This document shows positions 3,362-52,858 of a stretch of 64,000 nucleotides of DNA, piece by piece. The notes under the pieces were generated by a model. The model worked only from the letters and a program-made list of their open reading frames with translations, did no database searches and was not told where the DNA came from. This DNA comes from Acholeplasmataceae bacterium. GTDB taxonomy: Bacteria > Bacillota_I > Bacilli_A > Acholeplasmatales > Acholeplasmataceae. A program made the position numbers and the translations under genes. Where the stretch lies: assembly GCA_041654835.1 (NCBI GenBank), contig JBAZCQ010000002.1, forward strand, positions 74,476-138,475, in the 5' to 3' direction. Position 1 is the first letter of the stretch, and each line of letters begins with the position of its first letter.

Positions 3362-3570
3362 TAATTTGCTATAAAAAAATCCCTAGACAAATGTCTAAGG
3401 ACGAAAAATTCCGCGGTACCACCTTAGTTCCAGATACAGATCTGGCCCTCTTTTTCTTTAACGCAGAAAACGGATGGGATTAGCATCTCTCAAGAATGAA
3501 TTCAAAATCGACCACTTGCATCGTTCACACTAGCCGATGCTCACTGAAAAAGCTTTACAATTTTTACTAT
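3362..3570 (-). promoter_or_regulatory. T-box riboswitch leader of pheST (putative Phe UUC specifier)
   Basis: The minus strand reads AACTAAGGTGGTACCGCGG (complement of 3411-3429), the conserved T-box sequence. It is preceded by a stem III hairpin CCAGATctgtATCTGG (3430-3445). It is followed by a terminator CCTTAGA...TCTAGGG plus a U-run (3372-3400). GAA-UUC-A on the 3' side of the presumed Stem I places the codon at 3498-3500. Confidence 0.85.
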
Positions 3571-3591
3571 TTTCTCTCACTGATTTTTAAT

Positions 3592-45920: not shown

Positions 45921-46163
45921 CTATAATCGATCAAATACATAACAATTATACGAATATAGAAATATTACGTCCAATTGTTTCGGTATTAACAAACTTGCAG
46001 TAGTCTGATACGTTAAGTATTGGACTTTTTATATTGTTTTAATCAAAAATTGTTAAAACTAACAAAGAATAGTGTTGATGAATTTGATAAAAAACTTCAG
46101 TTTAAATTTATGACAGAACAGCAACAAAAGCAAACCATTATATTTGATACTTGTAGAATACAT

Positions 46164-46192
46164 TTGACTTACATTAAATATGTTGTTATAAT
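46164..46192 (+). promoter_or_regulatory. Near-consensus sigma-A promoter of the peptide-maturation cassette
   Basis: TTGACT (46164-46169), a 17-nt spacer, and TGt-TATAAT (extended -10; hexamer at 46187-46192). Confidence 0.7.
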
Positions 46193-46234
46193 TAACAAGA
46201 AAGGAGAGGGTAGTCTTTCTACTCAACATAGCTG

Positions 46235-47854
46235 ATGAAACTAAAAATATTAAAAAAGTCAAAGGCATTGAAGTGCATGGTTGTTCTATTATTTACAATA
46301 AGTATTTTACTGTTTGTTATTATGGGTTTGTTTTCTTTATTTCAAGGGAGACTAATTGATTCGATATCAGAATCAAGGGAGGACTTTTTAAAAAATATTT
46401 TATATCTTGGGATTATCATTGTTATTAGTTCTTTATTATACTATTTTATGAACAAGTTGACTATGAAAGTTGCAGTTAAGGGTTCTTTTTTAATTAGAGA
46501 CGATGTATTTCAAAATGTCATTAACAAAGACTATCTGGACTTCACAAAGAAAAATAAAAGCGAATATTCGTCGCTTCTTTTAAATGATGTAAGACAGTTA
46601 GAATCAAACTACTTAAATCCAATGCTAATGTTAGCAGGTGGTATAACCTCAGTTGTTGTATCCACTGTACTTATGATATATTCTAATTTTGTTCTTGGAT
46701 TAATAATCATCGGTATAACGATTGTTTTGTTTTTCTTGCCATTATTTGTATCTGGGATCATGATGAGATTGCAAAGAGAATATTCAGACCAAGTTTCCCA
46801 GTATACTTCTACAATCAACAATCTTTTTGATAATTACTTAACAACAGCAACCAAAGGAATCACCGGTTATGTGATAAAAAGATATCAGAAAACCAATTTA
46901 AACCTATTTAAATCTCATCAACAATTGGGTAACAAAAAATCTTTGGTAGAAACAATAGGTCAAATTAGTCATTTTTTGATAACTGCAATCGCTGTGATTG
47001 TATCTGCGATTTTTGTTTTTGATAACAAAATTTCAATTGGTGATCTAACGGTTTTTGTAGCATTAACGGGGACGTTCACTTCAAGCTTATCACTTATTTT
47101 TCAAATTGTTCCAGTTGTAAAAAGCATGTCTCCAATTATTGAAAAAATTAATTTTTTTTCGGAAGTAAAAGCAAATGAGACAAATCAATTATTCACCATA
47201 GAAAGCGCCATCCACAGCATTAAAGCCGATAGATTATCATTAAATATAGGTAATAAAAATGTCCTTAATGAGATAAGTTTCGATATTAATCATGGTGATA
47301 AGGTTATTTTTACCGGTCCAAATGGAGGAGGGAAAACAATGTTATCTTACATTATTATGGGATTATTAAGAGATTATAGTGGCAGCATAAAAATTAACAA
47401 TCAAGAATTAAATTATATAAAACAAGAATCCTTATCGAAAACAATCAGCTATATACAACAAAATCCCATACTATTTGACGGATCAATAAAGGATAACCTC
47501 ACGCTTGATAACTCAATTTCAAACGACGTCTTATTACAAACAATTAATTTTGTTGGATTGACTGAGTGGTTTTCAAACCAACATGACGGATTAGATAGTA
47601 TTATAAATAATGATAATATAAAAATGTCAGGTGGGGAAAAGCAAAGGCTTTTTATCGCTAGATCAATCTTAGAAAATAAAGACATAATTATTTTAGATGA
47701 ACCGGATAGCGCTGTAGATATTATCGGAAGACAATGGCTAATGGATTTTATAACTAAAACAGATAAAACAATCATCATGATATCTCATAATATTAAAGTA
47801 TACGATTTAAATATTTTCAACAAAAGTTTTTTTGTTGGTGAGGAGATTTTATGA
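46235..47854 (+). CDS. ABC exporter, fused permease/ATPase (no peptidase domain)
   Basis: 539 aa. The N-terminal six-TM type-I exporter domain starts at about residue 15. Walker A is GPNGGGKT, the signature is MSGGEKQR and Walker B is IIILDEPD. The start codon choice is uncertain (weak RBS; alternative ATG at 46277). Confidence 0.88.
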   Translation: MKLKILKKSKALKCMVVLLFTISILLFVIMGLFSLFQGRLIDSISESREDFLKNILYLGIIIVISSLLYYFMNKLTMKVAVKGSFLIRDDVFQNVINKDYLDFTKKNKSEYSSLLLNDVRQLESNYLNPMLMLAGGITSVVVSTVLMIYSNFVLGLIIIGITIVLFFLPLFVSGIMMRLQREYSDQVSQYTSTINNLFDNYLTTATKGITGYVIKRYQKTNLNLFKSHQQLGNKKSLVETIGQISHFLITAIAVIVSAIFVFDNKISIGDLTVFVALTGTFTSSLSLIFQIVPVVKSMSPIIEKINFFSEVKANETNQLFTIESAIHSIKADRLSLNIGNKNVLNEISFDINHGDKVIFTGPNGGGKTMLSYIIMGLLRDYSGSIKINNQELNYIKQESLSKTISYIQQNPILFDGSIKDNLTLDNSISNDVLLQTINFVGLTEWFSNQHDGLDSIINNDNIKMSGGEKQRLFIARSILENKDIIILDEPDSAVDIIGRQWLMDFITKTDKTIIMISHNIKVYDLNIFNKSFFVGEEIL

Positions 47855-49065
47855 AATACAAATTTTGTAAAAATATACGATGTGAAAAAGTAAAAAATGA
47901 ATATATTGTAGGTGATATTTTTACTGGGACAATTATAACGCTTACTAAAGATGGTGAAAAACTCATTAAACACATACAGAAAAACAAAGATATTAATGAC
48001 ATCGAGTTTCTTAGTAATGAACAACAGGAGCTATTTTCATTTTTGTTATCTAACAATTTCATTATAGAAAAAAACAAAGAAGAGAAACAAATTAATTACT
48101 TAAGAACTGTATATTTGCACGTTAATAATGTTTGTAATTTTTCTTGTCATGGGTGTTATTCTGGTTCGTTGAGAAGTGGGGCATTTAGATTTATATCAAA
48201 TGAAGAAACCAAAATTTTGGGGGAACAACTGGTTTCGAAGGGATGTAAACAGGTTATTGTTTCTGGGGGAGAGCCAATGATGTCAACAAATATATATGAT
48301 GTAGTGAAAACTCTTAAGGAAGAAGGAATATCATTTATAAGCTTAATCTCAAATGGGTTTGAAAATACAGACAAATACCTTAGCATGTATGACTATGTTG
48401 ACAACATATCTTTTTCATTAGATGGATATAGTGATACAAGCAGCACTATAAGGCCAAAAAGCACAGTTAGAAAAATAAAGGGATTGGTAAAAAAGCTTCA
48501 TGATTATGAGAAAAATGTCTCATTGATTATTACTATACATCATTTCAATCTAAGAGACATTGATTTGTTTATAGAGATGGTGGATAATTTGAGGGTTAAT
48601 TTTAATTTTAGTGTTTATCTATCGTTTGATGATAATGACCCTTTTAGATTAACAAAAGAAGATTTTTATTTCTTAAACGATTGGATAGACAAACATTCTA
48701 TGCATAAATACTTTGAAGAATCAAATTTGGCATATAAAGAAACTTGCGGCCTTGCTAAACATATTTGTTCTATTGATCAAAATCTCGATGTTTACCCTTG
48801 TCACATGATGATGAGAGAAGAATATAAACTAGGAAGTCTAAAAAAAGATAGATTACATAGCATTTTATCGAAACCAGAAACAATCCGTTTGCAAACGAAC
48901 TTCGTGTTTAAGAATGAAGAGTGCAAGATGTGCGAAGTAAAACACTTTTGTGGTGGAGGGTGCATTGCAAGATCTATAAGCGAAGAAAAAAATAAAAATA
49001 CTGTAGATCCATTGTGCAAATCGTATAAATGTCAAATATCATCGTATCTTGAATCCATCTTTTAA
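47851..49065 (+). CDS. Radical SAM / SPASM-domain peptide-modifying enzyme with N-terminal RRE-like extension
   Basis: 404 aa. CNFSCHGC (CX3CX2C; C95/C99/C102) follows an N-terminal extension of about 90 aa. The C-terminus has C299, C306, C317, CKMCEVKHFCGGGC (C358/361/367/371), C389 and C394, which is a SPASM pattern. The ATG overlaps the exporter stop (ATGA). Confidence 0.9.
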   Translation: MKYKFCKNIRCEKVKNEYIVGDIFTGTIITLTKDGEKLIKHIQKNKDINDIEFLSNEQQELFSFLLSNNFIIEKNKEEKQINYLRTVYLHVNNVCNFSCHGCYSGSLRSGAFRFISNEETKILGEQLVSKGCKQVIVSGGEPMMSTNIYDVVKTLKEEGISFISLISNGFENTDKYLSMYDYVDNISFSLDGYSDTSSTIRPKSTVRKIKGLVKKLHDYEKNVSLIITIHHFNLRDIDLFIEMVDNLRVNFNFSVYLSFDDNDPFRLTKEDFYFLNDWIDKHSMHKYFEESNLAYKETCGLAKHICSIDQNLDVYPCHMMMREEYKLGSLKKDRLHSILSKPETIRLQTNFVFKNEECKMCEVKHFCGGGCIARSISEEKNKNTVDPLCKSYKCQISSYLESIF

Positions 49066-49108
49066 GTATTTGTTGTGGTTCTAAAATTTTATAGAAGGGA
49101 GAAAAAAC

Positions 49109-49183
49109 ATGAAAAAAGCAATTGTTACACCTAATGGATGGTGTTTTGGAATTGGTCCATTTTGGATTGGCAAAATCACATAA
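49109..49183 (+). CDS. Putative precursor peptide, 24 aa: MKKAIVTPNGWCFGIGPFWIGKIT
   Basis: It is not in the ORF track, being far shorter than any ORF the track lists. GAAGGGAG (49094-49101) lies 7 nt upstream of the ATG at 49109, and the TAA is at 49181-49183. It lies 43 nt downstream of, and co-directional with, the rSAM/SPASM gene, and a stable hairpin follows. Confidence 0.7.
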   Translation: MKKAIVTPNGWCFGIGPFWIGKIT

Positions 49184-49196
49184 TCTTAAATGGTAG

Positions 49197-49234
49197 CAAA
49201 AGCGGATCTTCTGAATCAAGAGGGTCTGCTTTTG
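49197..49234 (+). terminator. Stable hairpin downstream of the peptide ORF (terminator/attenuator or mRNA stabiliser)
   Basis: CAAAAGCGGATC (49197-49208) pairs with GGTCTGCTTTTG (49223-49234). This gives 12 bp including two G-U pairs, with a 14-nt loop. There is no extended U-run beyond the UUUU inside the 3' arm. Confidence 0.4.
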
Positions 49235-49367
49235 ATAATTGCAGTAAGGCTTGTAAGATTGAAATTTTTATAATAAATATAATGGGAGTTAAAAATAGCA
49301 TTTAGCAGTTTTTAAAAAAAATAGTTGGTGTATACTAGTAGTGTAGTAGTGATTGGAGATGCATAAA

Positions 49368-50351
49368 ATGAAGTTAACAAAAGAAGCAATATATATAAAT
49401 GTATTATTGTTGATTAACCTTGTACTCAATGAGTCACCTAAAGATATTATAAAATTATATGAAGATACTCTCTCTAATGTTTTCAAATTAAATATAGACG
49501 AAAACACAAAACAAATACTAAAAGAATATGAAGAGTTTTATGTCCAATTTGAAAAAAGGTTAGATAAAGAAAATTTAAGCGATATCTTTAGATTGAAAGA
49601 CACTTTTTATAATTTAATATCAATATATATGAAAGTTGAAAATCGTGAAAACAAAAATATTTTAAACAACATATATGATGAATGGCTGCTAGATAAAGAT
49701 TTGACTTTAGATAAATCAATTGATGCTTTGCCACTTTCTGCAAATGATAAGTGGATTTTATTTAAATTTATTAGTGACTACGATGAACATATAAGTAATG
49801 TGTTTGATGTTGTTTTAGAACAAAAGAAATTTTTTAATGATTTGCTACCCCTTTTAAAGAATTCATATTTAAAAATAGATAACTTCAAAGACATGGTTAT
49901 AAATAATACAGCACTAAACGATACAGCATTCTCTTTAAGTAATGACATTGAAGAGATTGTTCCGCTTATTTCTGCCCCATTTGCGACACTTATACAAGGA
50001 AAGAAAGCTTATAGAGGGATTTTGATCGATTTAATAGTAAATGATAAAAGTGAAGATAAAATAGCAAAAAATTTAACGATATTAAAATCAGTTATTGATA
50101 ATACCAAATTTGCTATATTATCTTCAATTGCCCAAAAACCAAAATATGGTGCTGAACTTGCTAAAGAATTGAATTTAACACCAGGAACTATAACATATCA
50201 CACAAATGAGTTAACTGCCTTTAAATTAATTTCTCCAACTGCAGTTGGAGGAAAAATATTTTATTCAATAAACAATCAAAGAATAAATTCTGCATTTGAT
50301 GAAATTAAAAAGCTACTAATCTTGCAGAAAAATGATGAGATTAAGAACTAA
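49368..50351 (+). CDS. Transcriptional regulator: about 240-aa helical N-terminal domain of unknown function plus C-terminal ArsR-type winged HTH
   Basis: The C-terminus FAILSSIAQKPKYGAELAKELNLTPGTITYHTNELTAFKLI matches the ArsR/SmtB wHTH pattern. GGAG lies 9 nt upstream of the ATG at 49368. The track start at 49353 is a TTG. Confidence 0.72.
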   Translation: MKLTKEAIYINVLLLINLVLNESPKDIIKLYEDTLSNVFKLNIDENTKQILKEYEEFYVQFEKRLDKENLSDIFRLKDTFYNLISIYMKVENRENKNILNNIYDEWLLDKDLTLDKSIDALPLSANDKWILFKFISDYDEHISNVFDVVLEQKKFFNDLLPLLKNSYLKIDNFKDMVINNTALNDTAFSLSNDIEEIVPLISAPFATLIQGKKAYRGILIDLIVNDKSEDKIAKNLTILKSVIDNTKFAILSSIAQKPKYGAELAKELNLTPGTITYHTNELTAFKLISPTAVGGKIFYSINNQRINSAFDEIKKLLILQKNDEIKN

Positions 50352-50608
50352 TTTTTTACTAAACTATGATGCTTTGGTTCACTTGTGATTTAAAAGGAAC
50401 TGTAAATAAATAAAATTTTTATATAAAAAGTTTCGGTCAATTGATCGATTAAAAATGAAAACATTTTAATATATTAATGTACACAATAAAAAAAGATATA
50501 GAATAATTGAATAATCATCTACTATGAAACTTAATATTTGCTAAGTCTTTACATAAATATGCCCAAAAATTTTTTTTATTATTTATATAGATTAAATGTG
50601 AAAAAAAT

Positions 50609-50667: not shown

Positions 50668-51969
50668 CTATTTTCTTTTACCCTTTTTTTGAAACGCCTT
50701 CTTAAAGTATGAACCAATTCGTTTAAAGAACTTCGTTTGATCATAACTTAAGATCGCTACTTTGTACACAGGCGCAAACGCTAAGGTTGCTAAAACTAAG
50801 AAAATAATCATCACAATTAAAGCAATGATAGCCTCAACTAGTGTGATACTTCCAGCAGCGAAGGCGACAGGTGCTAAAATCGGCGTGAAAATCGGTACGA
50901 ACGACATGATTTTCATAAAACCAGAACCGCCAGCCATCGGTGCGAAAATACCGATATAAAAACCACCTAGTAACATAAGCATAAGCGGAGATTGGAATTG
51001 TTGGTAATCTTCTTGTGTAACCGCCATCGAGGCAAACAAAGCTGCGATGACTAAATAAAAGAGGGTGCCAATAATCATAAACAACACAGAAAATAACACA
51101 ACAGTCGGCCAATTGGGGAAAAGATCTGCCACATATTTCAATAAATGAACTTCAGGGCCTCCAGGCATCCCTGTACTTCCACTTAGTTGCTGATTGCCAA
51201 TCAGAGCCGCAACCGCACTATATACTAGAATAAGTCCACCTTGAATAACGACGAAGAAAATACTTGAGGTAATCTTTGATAAGAAATGGATATTTGCTGG
51301 AACACTTGAAATAATTGTCTCAATTGCTTTGGTTGATTTTTCTTCAATAATATCGATCCCAACAAACTGGGTTGCCATCGTAATTAAAATGAACATCGGT
51401 AAAATCAAAATCGTCATCATCGATGATAACAACATCTCTTCTTCTGGACTTTCATAATCTGGGGGCATCACCGGAGTTATGACCGGAGCTTGATAATCAT
51501 CAATTTGGTATAAAATAATGAGTCTTTCTAATTGTCCATATAAAAGCGGATTATGTTCAGGTGTTTTTGAGTAAAGATCAAAAATTGGCGCTGCGACCGA
51601 TCCTTTAAAAACAATGACAACATCCCAATCTTCATCATCCCAAAAGGCTTTTTCTTGTTCCGGATCCGTTAAATCAATATCAGTAAAAGACGTTGTTTTT
51701 TCATCAATCAAGTAATACTCATACCCACCAAAAGATTCATTTAAAATAACACTCAATTGGTCACTCACATCGGCTTGTGCCGTTTCATTGTATAAGTCAA
51801 TATGAATATTCGTAATCGGATCTTCTTCTGGTGTAAACCAACCAATAATCGTTGGTAAATTAACAATTGCAATTAACAAAATGGCGATGACGATATTCGC
51901 AATCACAAAGGCTTTTCGATAAACTCTTTTTTTCAAACCAAACTTCACTAAGAATTTAAATTTCTTCAC
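50668..51969 (-). CDS. ABC-2 type transporter permease (NatB/YhaP-like architecture)
   Basis: 433 aa. An N-terminal TM is followed by an extracytoplasmic loop of about 150 aa and five C-terminal TM segments. Confidence 0.8.
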   Translation of the reverse strand: MKKFKFLVKFGLKKRVYRKAFVIANIVIAILLIAIVNLPTIIGWFTPEEDPITNIHIDLYNETAQADVSDQLSVILNESFGGYEYYLIDEKTTSFTDIDLTDPEQEKAFWDDEDWDVVIVFKGSVAAPIFDLYSKTPEHNPLLYGQLERLIILYQIDDYQAPVITPVMPPDYESPEEEMLLSSMMTILILPMFILITMATQFVGIDIIEEKSTKAIETIISSVPANIHFLSKITSSIFFVVIQGGLILVYSAVAALIGNQQLSGSTGMPGGPEVHLLKYVADLFPNWPTVVLFSVLFMIIGTLFYLVIAALFASMAVTQEDYQQFQSPLMLMLLGGFYIGIFAPMAGGSGFMKIMSFVPIFTPILAPVAFAAGSITLVEAIIALIVMIIFLVLATLAFAPVYKVAILSYDQTKFFKRIGSYFKKAFQKKGKRK

Positions 51970-52858
51970 GAGATTTACCTACCTTTGCTATAAATATTTC
52001 ACTTAAAGACGCTTTTTCAACGTCGTATTTTGTAATGTTGTCGCATTTTTTCACATAATCAAAGACAGCGTGGCTCACTTCTTTATTGGCAATCTTAACG
52101 ATATAGGAGTGCTTGTTTTTAATCACTTCTTCGACACCTTCAATTTGTCGTAAGACATCAGGGTCGACATCACCTTCAATTTGAATATTTTGTTTTTGGA
52201 AAGCTTCTTTAATTTCTTCTAAGTTACCACTAATAATCGCTTCGCCTTTTTCTAAAACGACAACCTCTTCACAAAATGATTCAACGTGGTCTAATTGATG
52301 TGAAGAAAAGACAACCATACTTCCCTTTGCTTGAAAATCATGAATTACATCGACAAACAATTTTGTATTAATAGGATCTAAACCACTAAAAGGTTCGTCT
52401 AAAATAAGCAATTTAGGATTGTTAATAATCGCTGAAATAAACTGAATTTTTTGTTGGTTTCCTTTTGAAAGTTCTTTAATCTTTTTATCGCGATAATCAA
52501 CAATATCAAACCGTTCTAACCAATAATCGAGGCGCTCTAAAATTACTTTTGGTTCCATGTCCTTTAGTTGACCATAATAAAGCATCAGTTCTTTAACGGT
52601 AATTTTTGTCAACAAACTTCTTTCTTCAATCATATACCCAATTTCATTGACATTGTGGTATCCAATTTTATCGCCAAAATAAAGGACTTCGCCTTCCGTT
52701 GGTTCGAGTAAGCCCATAATCATTCTAAACGTTGTCGTTTTTCCGGCACCATTGGTTCCTAAAAGACCAAAGATGTCACCGGGTTTAATTGTGAACGAGA
52801 GTTGCTCAACAGCGACAAAGTCACCGTACATCATTTTCGCATTTTTGACTTCTAACAT
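51956..52858 (-). CDS. ABC transporter ATP-binding protein (NatA-like)
   Basis: Walker A GTNGAGKT, signature LSKGNQQK and Walker B LLILDEPFSGLD are present. Confidence 0.9.
   Translation of the reverse strand: MLEVKNAKMMYGDFVAVEQLSFTIKPGDIFGLLGTNGAGKTTTFRMIMGLLEPTEGEVLYFGDKIGYHNVNEIGYMIEERSLLTKITVKELMLYYGQLKDMEPKVILERLDYWLERFDIVDYRDKKIKELSKGNQQKIQFISAIINNPKLLILDEPFSGLDPINTKLFVDVIHDFQAKGSMVVFSSHQLDHVESFCEEVVVLEKGEAIISGNLEEIKEAFQKQNIQIEGDVDPDVLRQIEGVEEVIKNKHSYIVKIANKEVSHAVFDYVKKCDNITKYDVEKASLSEIFIAKVGKSREEI

Follow-up and report, generated by a model that had tools for sequence, protein, structure and literature searches.

A conserved, previously unannotated 24-codon gene beside a radical SAM/SPASM enzyme gene in an Acholeplasmataceae bacterium, and a related family of short Cys-X3-Gly peptides

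The window considered here is a 64-kb (64,000-nucleotide) stretch of contig JBAZCQ010000002.1 from an Acholeplasmataceae bacterium (assembly GCA_041654835.1, contig positions 74,476 to 138,475, forward strand), and positions are counted from its first nucleotide. Our subject is a 24-codon open reading frame (ORF) on the + strand, with ATG at 49109 and TAA at 49181-49183, which starts 43 nt past the stop codon of a gene for a radical S-adenosylmethionine (SAM)/SPASM enzyme. A preliminary description, made from the sequence alone, had proposed the ORF as a candidate precursor for that enzyme. The ORF belongs to an island of four genes in the order promoter-like site, ABC exporter, radical SAM/SPASM enzyme, ORF, hairpin and winged helix-turn-helix (wHTH) protein. 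The features are as follows.

46164..46192, + strand: promoter-like site, TTGACT-17-TATAAT with an extended TG, matching the consensus at 11/12 positions, 43 nt upstream of the ABC exporter gene.
46235..47854, + strand: ABC exporter, 539 aa, fused transmembrane and ATPase domains (Pfam ABC_membrane and ABC_tran).
47851..49065, + strand: putative radical SAM/SPASM peptide maturase, 404 aa, with a CX3CX2C motif, a seven-Cys SPASM domain and an N-terminus resembling a RiPP recognition element (RRE; RiPP, ribosomally synthesised and post-translationally modified peptide).
49094..49101, + strand: ribosome-binding site GAAGGGAG, ending 7 nt before the ATG, its GGAG core kept in the related contig L009.
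49109..49183, + strand: candidate precursor peptide, 24 aa, MKKAIVTPNGWCFGIGPFWIGKIT, with C12, G16 and G21 invariant in its family and a net charge of +3.
49197..49234, + strand: 16-bp stem-loop, putative operon-end terminator (folding energy -25.9 kcal/mol, z = -5.0), lacking a clean T-run.
49368..50351, + strand: 327-aa protein, winged helix of ArsR/SdpR type at the C-terminus, no assignment for the N-terminal 240 aa or so, syntenic in a sister species.

The coordinates, the ribosome-binding site and the unannotated status of the ORF were as first described when the sequence was rechecked. An in-frame stop codon at 49082 leaves no upstream alternative start, which excludes a longer form. 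Two public contigs are 100% identical over the region and the ORF is uncalled in their JGI and Logan gene calls, where no gene appears between that of the radical SAM enzyme and the next. The exact peptide is not among approximately 15 billion catalogued proteins and that of the orthologue described below is likewise missing. As a measure of the chance background, 15 kb of this AT-rich DNA holds 168 ORFs of 20 aa or more. At such a density chance could account for a single 24-codon ORF, so the case for it must rest on comparative evidence.

The enzyme next to the ORF is rare, with 13 matching proteins among 5.8 billion and one cluster only above 35% identity. This cluster belongs to a Candidatus Izemoplasmatales species, here termed the sister species, represented by metagenome-assembled genomes and found on six contigs (L004, L009, L089, L097-L099). 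It carries the same four genes in the same order; the ABC exporter and the radical SAM enzyme are about 55% identical to those of the window, with 54-56% for the enzyme and 56% for the exporter of L009, and the wHTH protein is 37-38% identical, with 38% for that of L089. At the same position a 24-codon ORF of the same length encodes MKKAVVTTKGWCVGIGPIWFGKVS, in which 16 of the 24 residues are identical to the window peptide. The two ORFs share 55 of 75 nucleotides, the differences being distributed 6/1/13 over the three codon positions, and the Nei-Gojobori (NG86) dN/dS ratio is 0.08-0.12. The dN of 0.178 is the lowest among the four cluster genes; the radical SAM gene has a dN/dS of 0.17 over 370 codons in the same comparison. 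The reading frame, whose conservation the preliminary description had proposed to check, is intact in this related locus, with no stops or frameshifts in the peptide gene. The other five frames of the ORF all contain stops, and the intergenic flanks have diverged between the two species except for the GGAG core of the ribosome-binding site. A hairpin of unrelated sequence and comparable strength (z = -6.9) occupies the equivalent post-ORF site in L009. Within the sister species the peptide gene has two polymorphisms, both synonymous, which are too few to demonstrate selection.

These observations bear on whether the ORF is just a frame that chance left open in the 3' UTR of the radical SAM gene. 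The abundance of short ORFs in AT-rich DNA and the failure of every gene caller to report this one speak for chance. Against it are the dN/dS of about 0.1 with change biased to third positions, the retention of length, start, stop and ribosome-binding site while the flanks diverge, a motif common to more than 60 peptides (see below), and a search of Rfam over the ORF region that gave zero matches. We regard a chance frame as highly improbable. From the comparison we take the ORF to be a conserved, previously unannotated gene under purifying selection, and with high confidence a translated one. Peptides of precisely this type are confined to two species in the data searched: a metagenome scan with the degenerate pattern WCxGxGPxWxGK gave one true match, in the same sister species, and five high-GC matches without ORFs, approximately the number expected by chance.

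The enzyme provides the second line of evidence. Its radical SAM motif CX3CX2C is formed by C95, C99 and C102, and its SPASM cysteines are C299, C317, C358, C361, C367, C371 and C389. Exactly ten Cys are invariant over 54 family sequences, the three of the radical SAM cluster and the seven of the SPASM domain. An AlphaFold2 (AF2) model (predicted local distance difference test score, pLDDT, of 70) places an N-terminal beta-beta-beta-alpha-alpha domain (residues 9-67) ahead of the radical SAM barrel and the SPASM domain. Residues 9-67 look RRE-like in this model, where their pLDDT is some 60-70; over its full length the enzyme aligns in Foldseek with CteB, which bears an RRE. This thioether synthase is the best Foldseek match (E value 1e-17), followed by anSME, SuiB and SkfB. 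The auxiliary cluster of CteB reportedly has an open site that binds the substrate Cys, as set out in the paper on its structure. One open site is likewise predicted for the window enzyme because seven SPASM Cys ligands serve two [4Fe-4S] clusters.

Six positions in proximity to the catalytic site, as defined in PMC10288494, were read from the CteB alignment. In the window enzyme they are Y103, S138, I166, S189, H318 and M319, and this YSISHM combination recurs in nearly all family enzymes despite an overall identity of only about 27%. The same positions are Y T I S K L in StsB and F F T S H Q in CteB. With YSISHM and exactly seven SPASM Cys the window enzyme conforms to its family, and the pocket being common to that family argues for one reaction shared by the window enzyme and its relatives. 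In many of these relatives the candidate substrate has neither Trp nor a C-terminal Lys. Six family enzymes, that of the window included, fall below every curated cutoff in NCBIfam, those of the sacti/ranthi maturase families StsB, PapB, SCIFF/CteB and AlbA among them. The window enzyme scores 89.4 bits against a cutoff of 625 for StsB, 49.2 against 340 for PapB, 58 against 425 for SCIFF and 66.9 against 650 for WgkB (NF050035); the other five score about 60-130 bits on these models. Across all six the best-scoring models are StsB, PapB or WgkB, at approximately 50-130 bits against cutoffs of 340-650.

The third line of evidence is the company such enzymes keep. A genome collection, scanned with the aligned sequences of the enzyme and its relatives, yielded 80 loci, those at 25-33% identity occurring in Bacillaceae, Streptococcus, Enterococcus, Staphylococcus, Kandleria, Lachnospiraceae, Oscillospiraceae, Veillonella and Coriobacteriia. 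Very short ORFs, in one to six copies per locus, adjoin the family enzymes. In total 62 peptides of 20-47 aa were found in 41 of 53 related loci, and in 21 loci the peptide gene begins no more than 700 nt after the radical SAM stop codon, often 2-80 nt. Where catalogued, these peptides are named only 'hypothetical protein', and six peptides compared with NCBIfam at E ≤ 10 matched no family. Examples are given below.

Neobacillus, family peptide present in three copies: MLFATKKPATKPNCVSFGVFLCVSYGKNW
S. orisratti, family peptide: MLKFSTKKAKKAGCVSVGALVQVSVGHYIKEIKSTV
Veillonella, family peptide: MLFSKLTKSGNCVSVGIGIFAVSYGPSWAWGF
Enorma, family peptide: MLFAIEVQSKRPCRIIGGIRIGF
Type B peptide, representing a second subtype: MAQKKDKKKKSGCINIYIVTAGYNGKNWTI

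The pattern M[LI][FK]..C..G picks out 38 peptides among the 61 family loci; 23 loci of more distant radical SAM enzymes gave no match, and neither did shuffled sequences. Type B peptides lack the MLF N-terminus and have the core GC[IV]NIxIVxxG. A peptide from locus L060, MLFLGKKKSLLGCINILVVSAGYSGKKWSL (L060:7198-7290), joins an N-terminal MLF, typical of one subtype, to the GC-I-N-I core typical of the other; judged by its sequence it bridges both precursor subtypes into one family. Tandem arrays of three to six precursor genes with slightly differing cores are seen at L029:923-1648, L032:850-1180 and L019:7293-7799, and Mediterraneibacter agrestimuris has six precursor genes in tandem.

A Gly four residues after Cys recurs in most of these cores. 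In peptides chosen without reference to Gly it follows the first Cys at +4 in 33 of 39 cases, and for all Cys the count is 59 of 66, against an overall Gly frequency of 11%. Only C12, G16 and G21 (window numbering) are invariant in an alignment of 26 peptides, and G21 is so even when the second Cys is lost. The importance that the preliminary description attached to Cys12 is borne out by this alignment; G16 and G21 had not been singled out. At +2 after Cys the residue is variable, with S, N, T, G, A, P and K all occurring. A tandem duplication of C-x-S-x-G is present in relatives, and in two-Cys peptides each Cys has its own Gly at +4. Family-wide 8-14 residues precede the Cys.

The window peptide, 24 aa long with its Cys at position 12 and Gly at +4 (G16), lies within the family ranges of 20-47 aa and Cys at 9-17, and the loose family pattern fits exactly one ORF on both strands of the window, that at 49109. 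Its core C-F-G-I-G-P-F-W-I-G-K aligns closely with C-I-S-V-G-P-F-G-V-C-I-S-Y-G-K of the L041 peptide, and it reads like an L041-type peptide that has lost its second C-x-S unit or kept it only as a vestige. Two loosely similar units had been noticed in the window peptide at the outset; the tandem duplication in relatives partly supports that observation, the second unit being vestigial here. It had also been suggested that the leader is unusually short for recognition by an RRE. This concern is weakened by the occurrence of equally short leaders throughout the family. PqqA, the ligand of the archetypal RRE PqqD, is of similar length.

The ORF is co-inherited with the ABC exporter, the radical SAM/SPASM enzyme and the wHTH protein. 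Family-wide co-occurrence of such peptides with such enzymes, together with the conserved orthologue, upholds its standing as candidate precursor of the adjacent enzyme, and the ORF most likely encodes the substrate of that enzyme. The window peptide is, from its sequence, a stripped-down and divergent member of a widespread and apparently unstudied family of short Cys/Gly peptides. As to the product, we think it reasonably probable that the ORF is the ribosomal precursor of a small radical-SAM-modified peptide carrying one Cys12 thioether, probably to the Cα of Gly16. The short Lys-rich N-terminus would dock on the RRE-like domain of the enzyme, and the Cys12 thiolate could then ligate the open site of the auxiliary [4Fe-4S] cluster, as in CteB. 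A 5'-deoxyadenosyl radical would take a hydrogen atom from the acceptor carbon and a single thioether would form. Gly16 Cα is favoured as acceptor because every Cys of the multi-Cys relatives has its own Gly at +4. The result would be a Cys-X3-Gly sactionine ring, an in-line ring analogous to the CX3D units made by PapB, the Cys-Gly links made by StsB and the short unnested rings of streptosactin.

The same precursor and enzyme might instead join Cys12 to another acceptor: Gly21, the +2 residue (Gly14 in the window; Ser, Asn or Thr in relatives) or, as in ranthipeptides, a beta or gamma carbon. A Gly at +9, corresponding to G21 in the window, is invariant in the type B peptides and in single-Cys Coriobacteriia peptides of 23-25 aa, and G21 itself is invariant across the 26 aligned peptides whether a second Cys is present or not. 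For one family member the ranthipeptide model PapB tops the NCBIfam list (103.6 bits, below cutoff). The provision of a separate +4 Gly for every Cys of the two-Cys peptides, on the other hand, fits an in-line CX3G arrangement better than one long bridge, and the +2 residue is variable in the family (see above). We judge these other acceptors, taken together, rather unlikely.

More distant from the evidence is the chemistry first suggested for this peptide, a beta-thioether between Cys12 and Asn9 in an NxxC motif and/or a carbon-carbon link between Trp19 and Lys22 of the streptide or tryglysin type. N9-G-W-C12 does match NxxC, and NxxcB accepts other acceptor residues (PMC9389541), a tolerance that can be counted in favour of such a link. 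W11, W19 and K22 are kept in the sole orthologue, and K/W-rich C-terminal tails recur in relatives, for example GKNW and GKKWTI. The NxxC motif itself does not survive comparison: the orthologue has Lys in place of N9, and Lys also predominates at -3 in the 26 aligned family peptides. The Trp/Lys proposal fares no better, since W19 and K22 are conserved in that single orthologue only, most relatives have no counterpart to either at the aligned positions and the WgkB model gives 66.9 bits for a cutoff of 650. K22 does coincide with a 'G-K' frequent in the Bacillaceae-type peptides. The peptides of L002, L048, L036 and L043 have neither Trp nor a C-terminal Lys, yet their enzymes have the same YSISHM pocket. 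The W-x-x-K order is neither WGK nor KxxxW, and an Rgg/SHP module was not found next to the cluster, where the neighbours are phosphotransferase system (PTS) genes and an ArsR-type wHTH. We consider this chemistry very unlikely.

Several observations count against a Cys12-Gly16 thioether formed by this enzyme, and one comes from the sister species itself. There an in-frame TGA replaces the codon for the SPASM cysteine Cys371 of the radical SAM gene in all eight catalogued variants.

L097:3829-3831, with equivalents in L004, L009, L089, L098 and L099: TGA site, matching window codon 371 (48961-48963).

The gene is otherwise intact in some strains, where 370 codons precede the TGA and 33 in-frame conserved codons (DPLCKSY) follow it, 404 in total. 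Frameshifts are additionally present in other strains, at codon 274 and, within a poly-A run, close to codon 16. The neighbouring genes for the peptide, the exporter and the wHTH protein are intact. Selenocysteine was considered for this codon and is unlikely, as there is no SECIS-like hairpin 3' of it (z = +0.34) and the neighbouring genes are without in-frame TGA. Of the possible readings, a fixed nonsense mutation is favoured over both selenocysteine and a variant genetic code, and the maturase of the sister species is probably dead. Retention of the peptide beside a disrupted radical SAM gene implies that the peptide may not strictly need the enzyme; its persistence could reflect recent decay of the maturase or a role for the unmodified peptide.

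Also to be set against the thioether is the N-terminus of the window peptide and its orthologue, which begin MKKA and are without the family M-[LI]-[FK]. The peptide of L012, whose enzyme branches beside that of the window in a neighbour-joining tree (28% identity), has Gly only at +10 and +14. Type B peptides have no Gly at +4 and an invariant Gly at +9, a spacing equal to that of G21 in the window, and a C12-G21 link is a serious and live alternative. Gly16 Cα is a guess from motif statistics. A CPBP (Rce1-like) protease, together with a membrane protein about 150 aa long, occurs in L001-L003, L005, L006, L016, L019, L023 and L025; both are missing from the window and from L009/L097. The N-terminal domain of the enzyme gave no match in a PqqD/RRE Pfam scan at E ≤ 10, and confidence in the AF2 model is only moderate, as its pLDDT of 70 indicates.

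The probable loss of a working maturase in the sister species raises the question of whether the peptide is real and not, or not only, an enzyme substrate: an unmodified exported signal or membrane peptide could be sensed via the wHTH protein, with the radical SAM enzyme dispensable. The fixed nonsense codon and frameshifts, alongside intact peptide, ABC and wHTH genes and a peptide gene polymorphic at synonymous sites only, suit this idea, as does the place of the wHTH protein in the conserved cluster. It has to contend with the family-wide co-occurrence of short Cys/Gly peptides and this enzyme family and with a window enzyme that is intact and, at dN/dS 0.17 over 370 codons, constrained in sequence; the two synonymous polymorphisms are, as noted, too few for proof of selection. 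We find such a role for the unmodified peptide quite improbable.

Returning to the thioether-bearing product, its fate would depend on the rest of the island. The exporter gene overlaps the start of the radical SAM gene by 4 nt. The exporter is 28% identical to that of one family locus and gives weak matches to the bacteriocin and streptosactin exporters of NCBIfam, every one below cutoff. The product it would export is cationic and hydrophobic and would keep all or nearly all of its leader: there is no protease gene in the window cluster and no C39 peptidase domain in the exporter, so the product may keep most of its 24 residues. The most likely role is that of a membrane-active bacteriocin, to which the +3 charge and hydrophobic body would be suited. 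Such a role is also supported by the contents of typical family loci, namely ABC-2 immunity-like pairs, CPBP/Abi-type proteins, several precursor copies and agr- or LytTR-type regulation. The 327-aa wHTH protein is a probable regulator of the window cluster.

Regulatory genes elsewhere in the family include those for AgrB-like proteins (L002:8555-9205, L003:8461-8985 and L006:5961-6578), LytTR response regulators in L002 and L003 and a histidine kinase in L002; their sequences suggest control of the AgrB-bearing loci by agr-type quorum sensing. The streptococcal locus L016 has a LytTR regulator instead of Rgg/SHP, which would explain why mining based on Rgg missed it. Just upstream of the Staphylococcus caeli cluster lies a gene for a 446-aa SEFIR/TIR-domain protein (L023:2393-3733).

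GC content is 25-31% across 46000-50400 and 35-38% in the flanking genes, which are ptsI (PTS) upstream and an ABC-2 pair and thrS downstream. The low GC of the four-gene block suggests a horizontally acquired island. The stem-loop at 49197..49234 was not flagged by a scan for consensus terminators. Directly past the cluster, 50668-52858 on the - strand holds a convergent pair, an ABC-2 permease of 433 aa and a DrrA-type ATPase of 300 aa. By analogy with the ABC-2 pairs of typical family loci this pair could confer self-immunity; no counterpart was identified downstream of the sister-species cluster in L089 or L097. A 71-codon ORF with a TTG start (46020-46235, + strand) was weighed as a rival precursor candidate; it matches no family, extends across the promoter-like site and is probably spurious. 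Elsewhere in the window a T-box leader (3394-3589, - strand, Rfam RF00230, 117.7 bits) represents its sole Rfam family.

Radical SAM/SPASM thioether RiPPs as a general kind are already known, and it is the enzyme clade and its peptides that are apparently uncharacterised. The literature and databases, as far as their searchable text extends (figures, supplements and paywalled work lie outside it), gave no curated model, structure, database name or paper for either. It is tentatively suggested that there is a new RiPP class, 'CX3G peptides', with ultrashort precursors and an enzyme clade beyond curated models, and that the window ORF represents it in its minimal form. The class might, with the same reserve, extend over Bacillota, Coriobacteriia and Veillonella, human-associated genera included. 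We would be similarly cautious in describing the window version as a leaderless, singly cross-linked 24-mer that dispenses with protease, immunity-type and membrane accessory genes. That the cross-link is of a kind new for small in-line rings, whether Cys-Gly Cα at i/i+4 or a non-thioether, is conceivable though doubtful.

A gene overlooked by annotation pipelines is now tied to a broad and apparently uncharacterised family of short, probably radical-SAM-modified peptides. Tiny precursors with a repeated Cys-X3-Gly unit would be convenient for studying how radical SAM enzymes recognise near-leaderless substrates, and also for enzymatic peptide stapling. The window version, consisting of enzyme, peptide and exporter, is the smallest three-gene construct that could be tested. 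The family is present in Streptococcus, Staphylococcus, Enterococcus, Veillonella and Collinsella, and its products may matter in microbiome competition.

How does the system compare with those already described? The closest by NCBIfam score is StsA/StsB of Streptomyces sparsogenes, a sactipeptide system in which the radical SAM/SPASM maturase StsB links Cys to Gly Cα (PMC10288494). StsB is the best NCBIfam match of the window enzyme, which at 89 bits against a cutoff of 625 is not a member. In StsA the hairpin links are three and nested (C-x-C-x-C ... G-x-G-x-G), and the RRE is a protein of its own, whereas the window has one Cys, a CX3G arrangement and a fused RRE-like domain. In PapA/PapB (freyrasin) repeated in-line Cys-X3-acceptor units (CX3D) are formed by one radical SAM/SPASM enzyme (PMC9413430). 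The i to i+4 spacing equals that of the family CX3G, but the acceptor is the beta or gamma carbon of Asp/Glu and a carboxylate is needed, while the window family has Gly at +4. The PapB model gives the window enzyme 49 bits where 340 are needed, and PapA is much longer with a normal leader.

Streptosactin is a 14-mer with a pair of unnested 4-residue macrocycles (PMC13361665). Its system, GggA/GggB/GggC, resembles that of the window in having a small peptide, a radical SAM enzyme and a dedicated ABC exporter, and the GggC model weakly matches the window exporter. It differs in its Rgg/SHP regulation and precursor motif, the exporter score is 140 bits against a cutoff of 750, and the window enzyme is not of the GggB family by the models available. 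Sporulation killing factor, SKF (SkfA/SkfB/SkfC), has a single Cys thioether formed by a radical SAM enzyme, and SkfB is among the structural matches. The skf operon encodes a CAAX/CPBP-type membrane protease, SkfC, and the ABC export system SkfEF. This combination resembles typical family loci; the window cluster is without the CPBP protease. SkfA, at 55 aa, includes a long leader, Met serves as the SKF acceptor and the product is a head-to-tail cycle; SkfB carries a twitch domain in place of a full SPASM domain.

The streptococcal peptides of the NxxcA/NxxcB and WgkA/WgkB systems likewise combine short precursors with radical SAM/SPASM enzymes, and the motif resemblance is superficial. Neither motif is conserved in the window family, the WgkB cutoff is missed and Rgg/SHP regulation is lacking. 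Nor is an NxxC peptide encoded by L016, the related locus of S. orisratti: its peptide reads MLKFSTKK..GCVSVG.. and its linked regulator is of the LytTR type. WGK peptides (tryglysin) have a contiguous W-G-K where the window peptide has W-I-G-K. In streptide (StrB/SuiB) the KxxxW motif places Lys before Trp, the reverse of W19...K22 in the window, and SuiB is only a distant structural match. With sactipeptide systems in general the window shares the essentials, a SPASM radical SAM enzyme and a Cys-containing precursor in which C12 is invariant.

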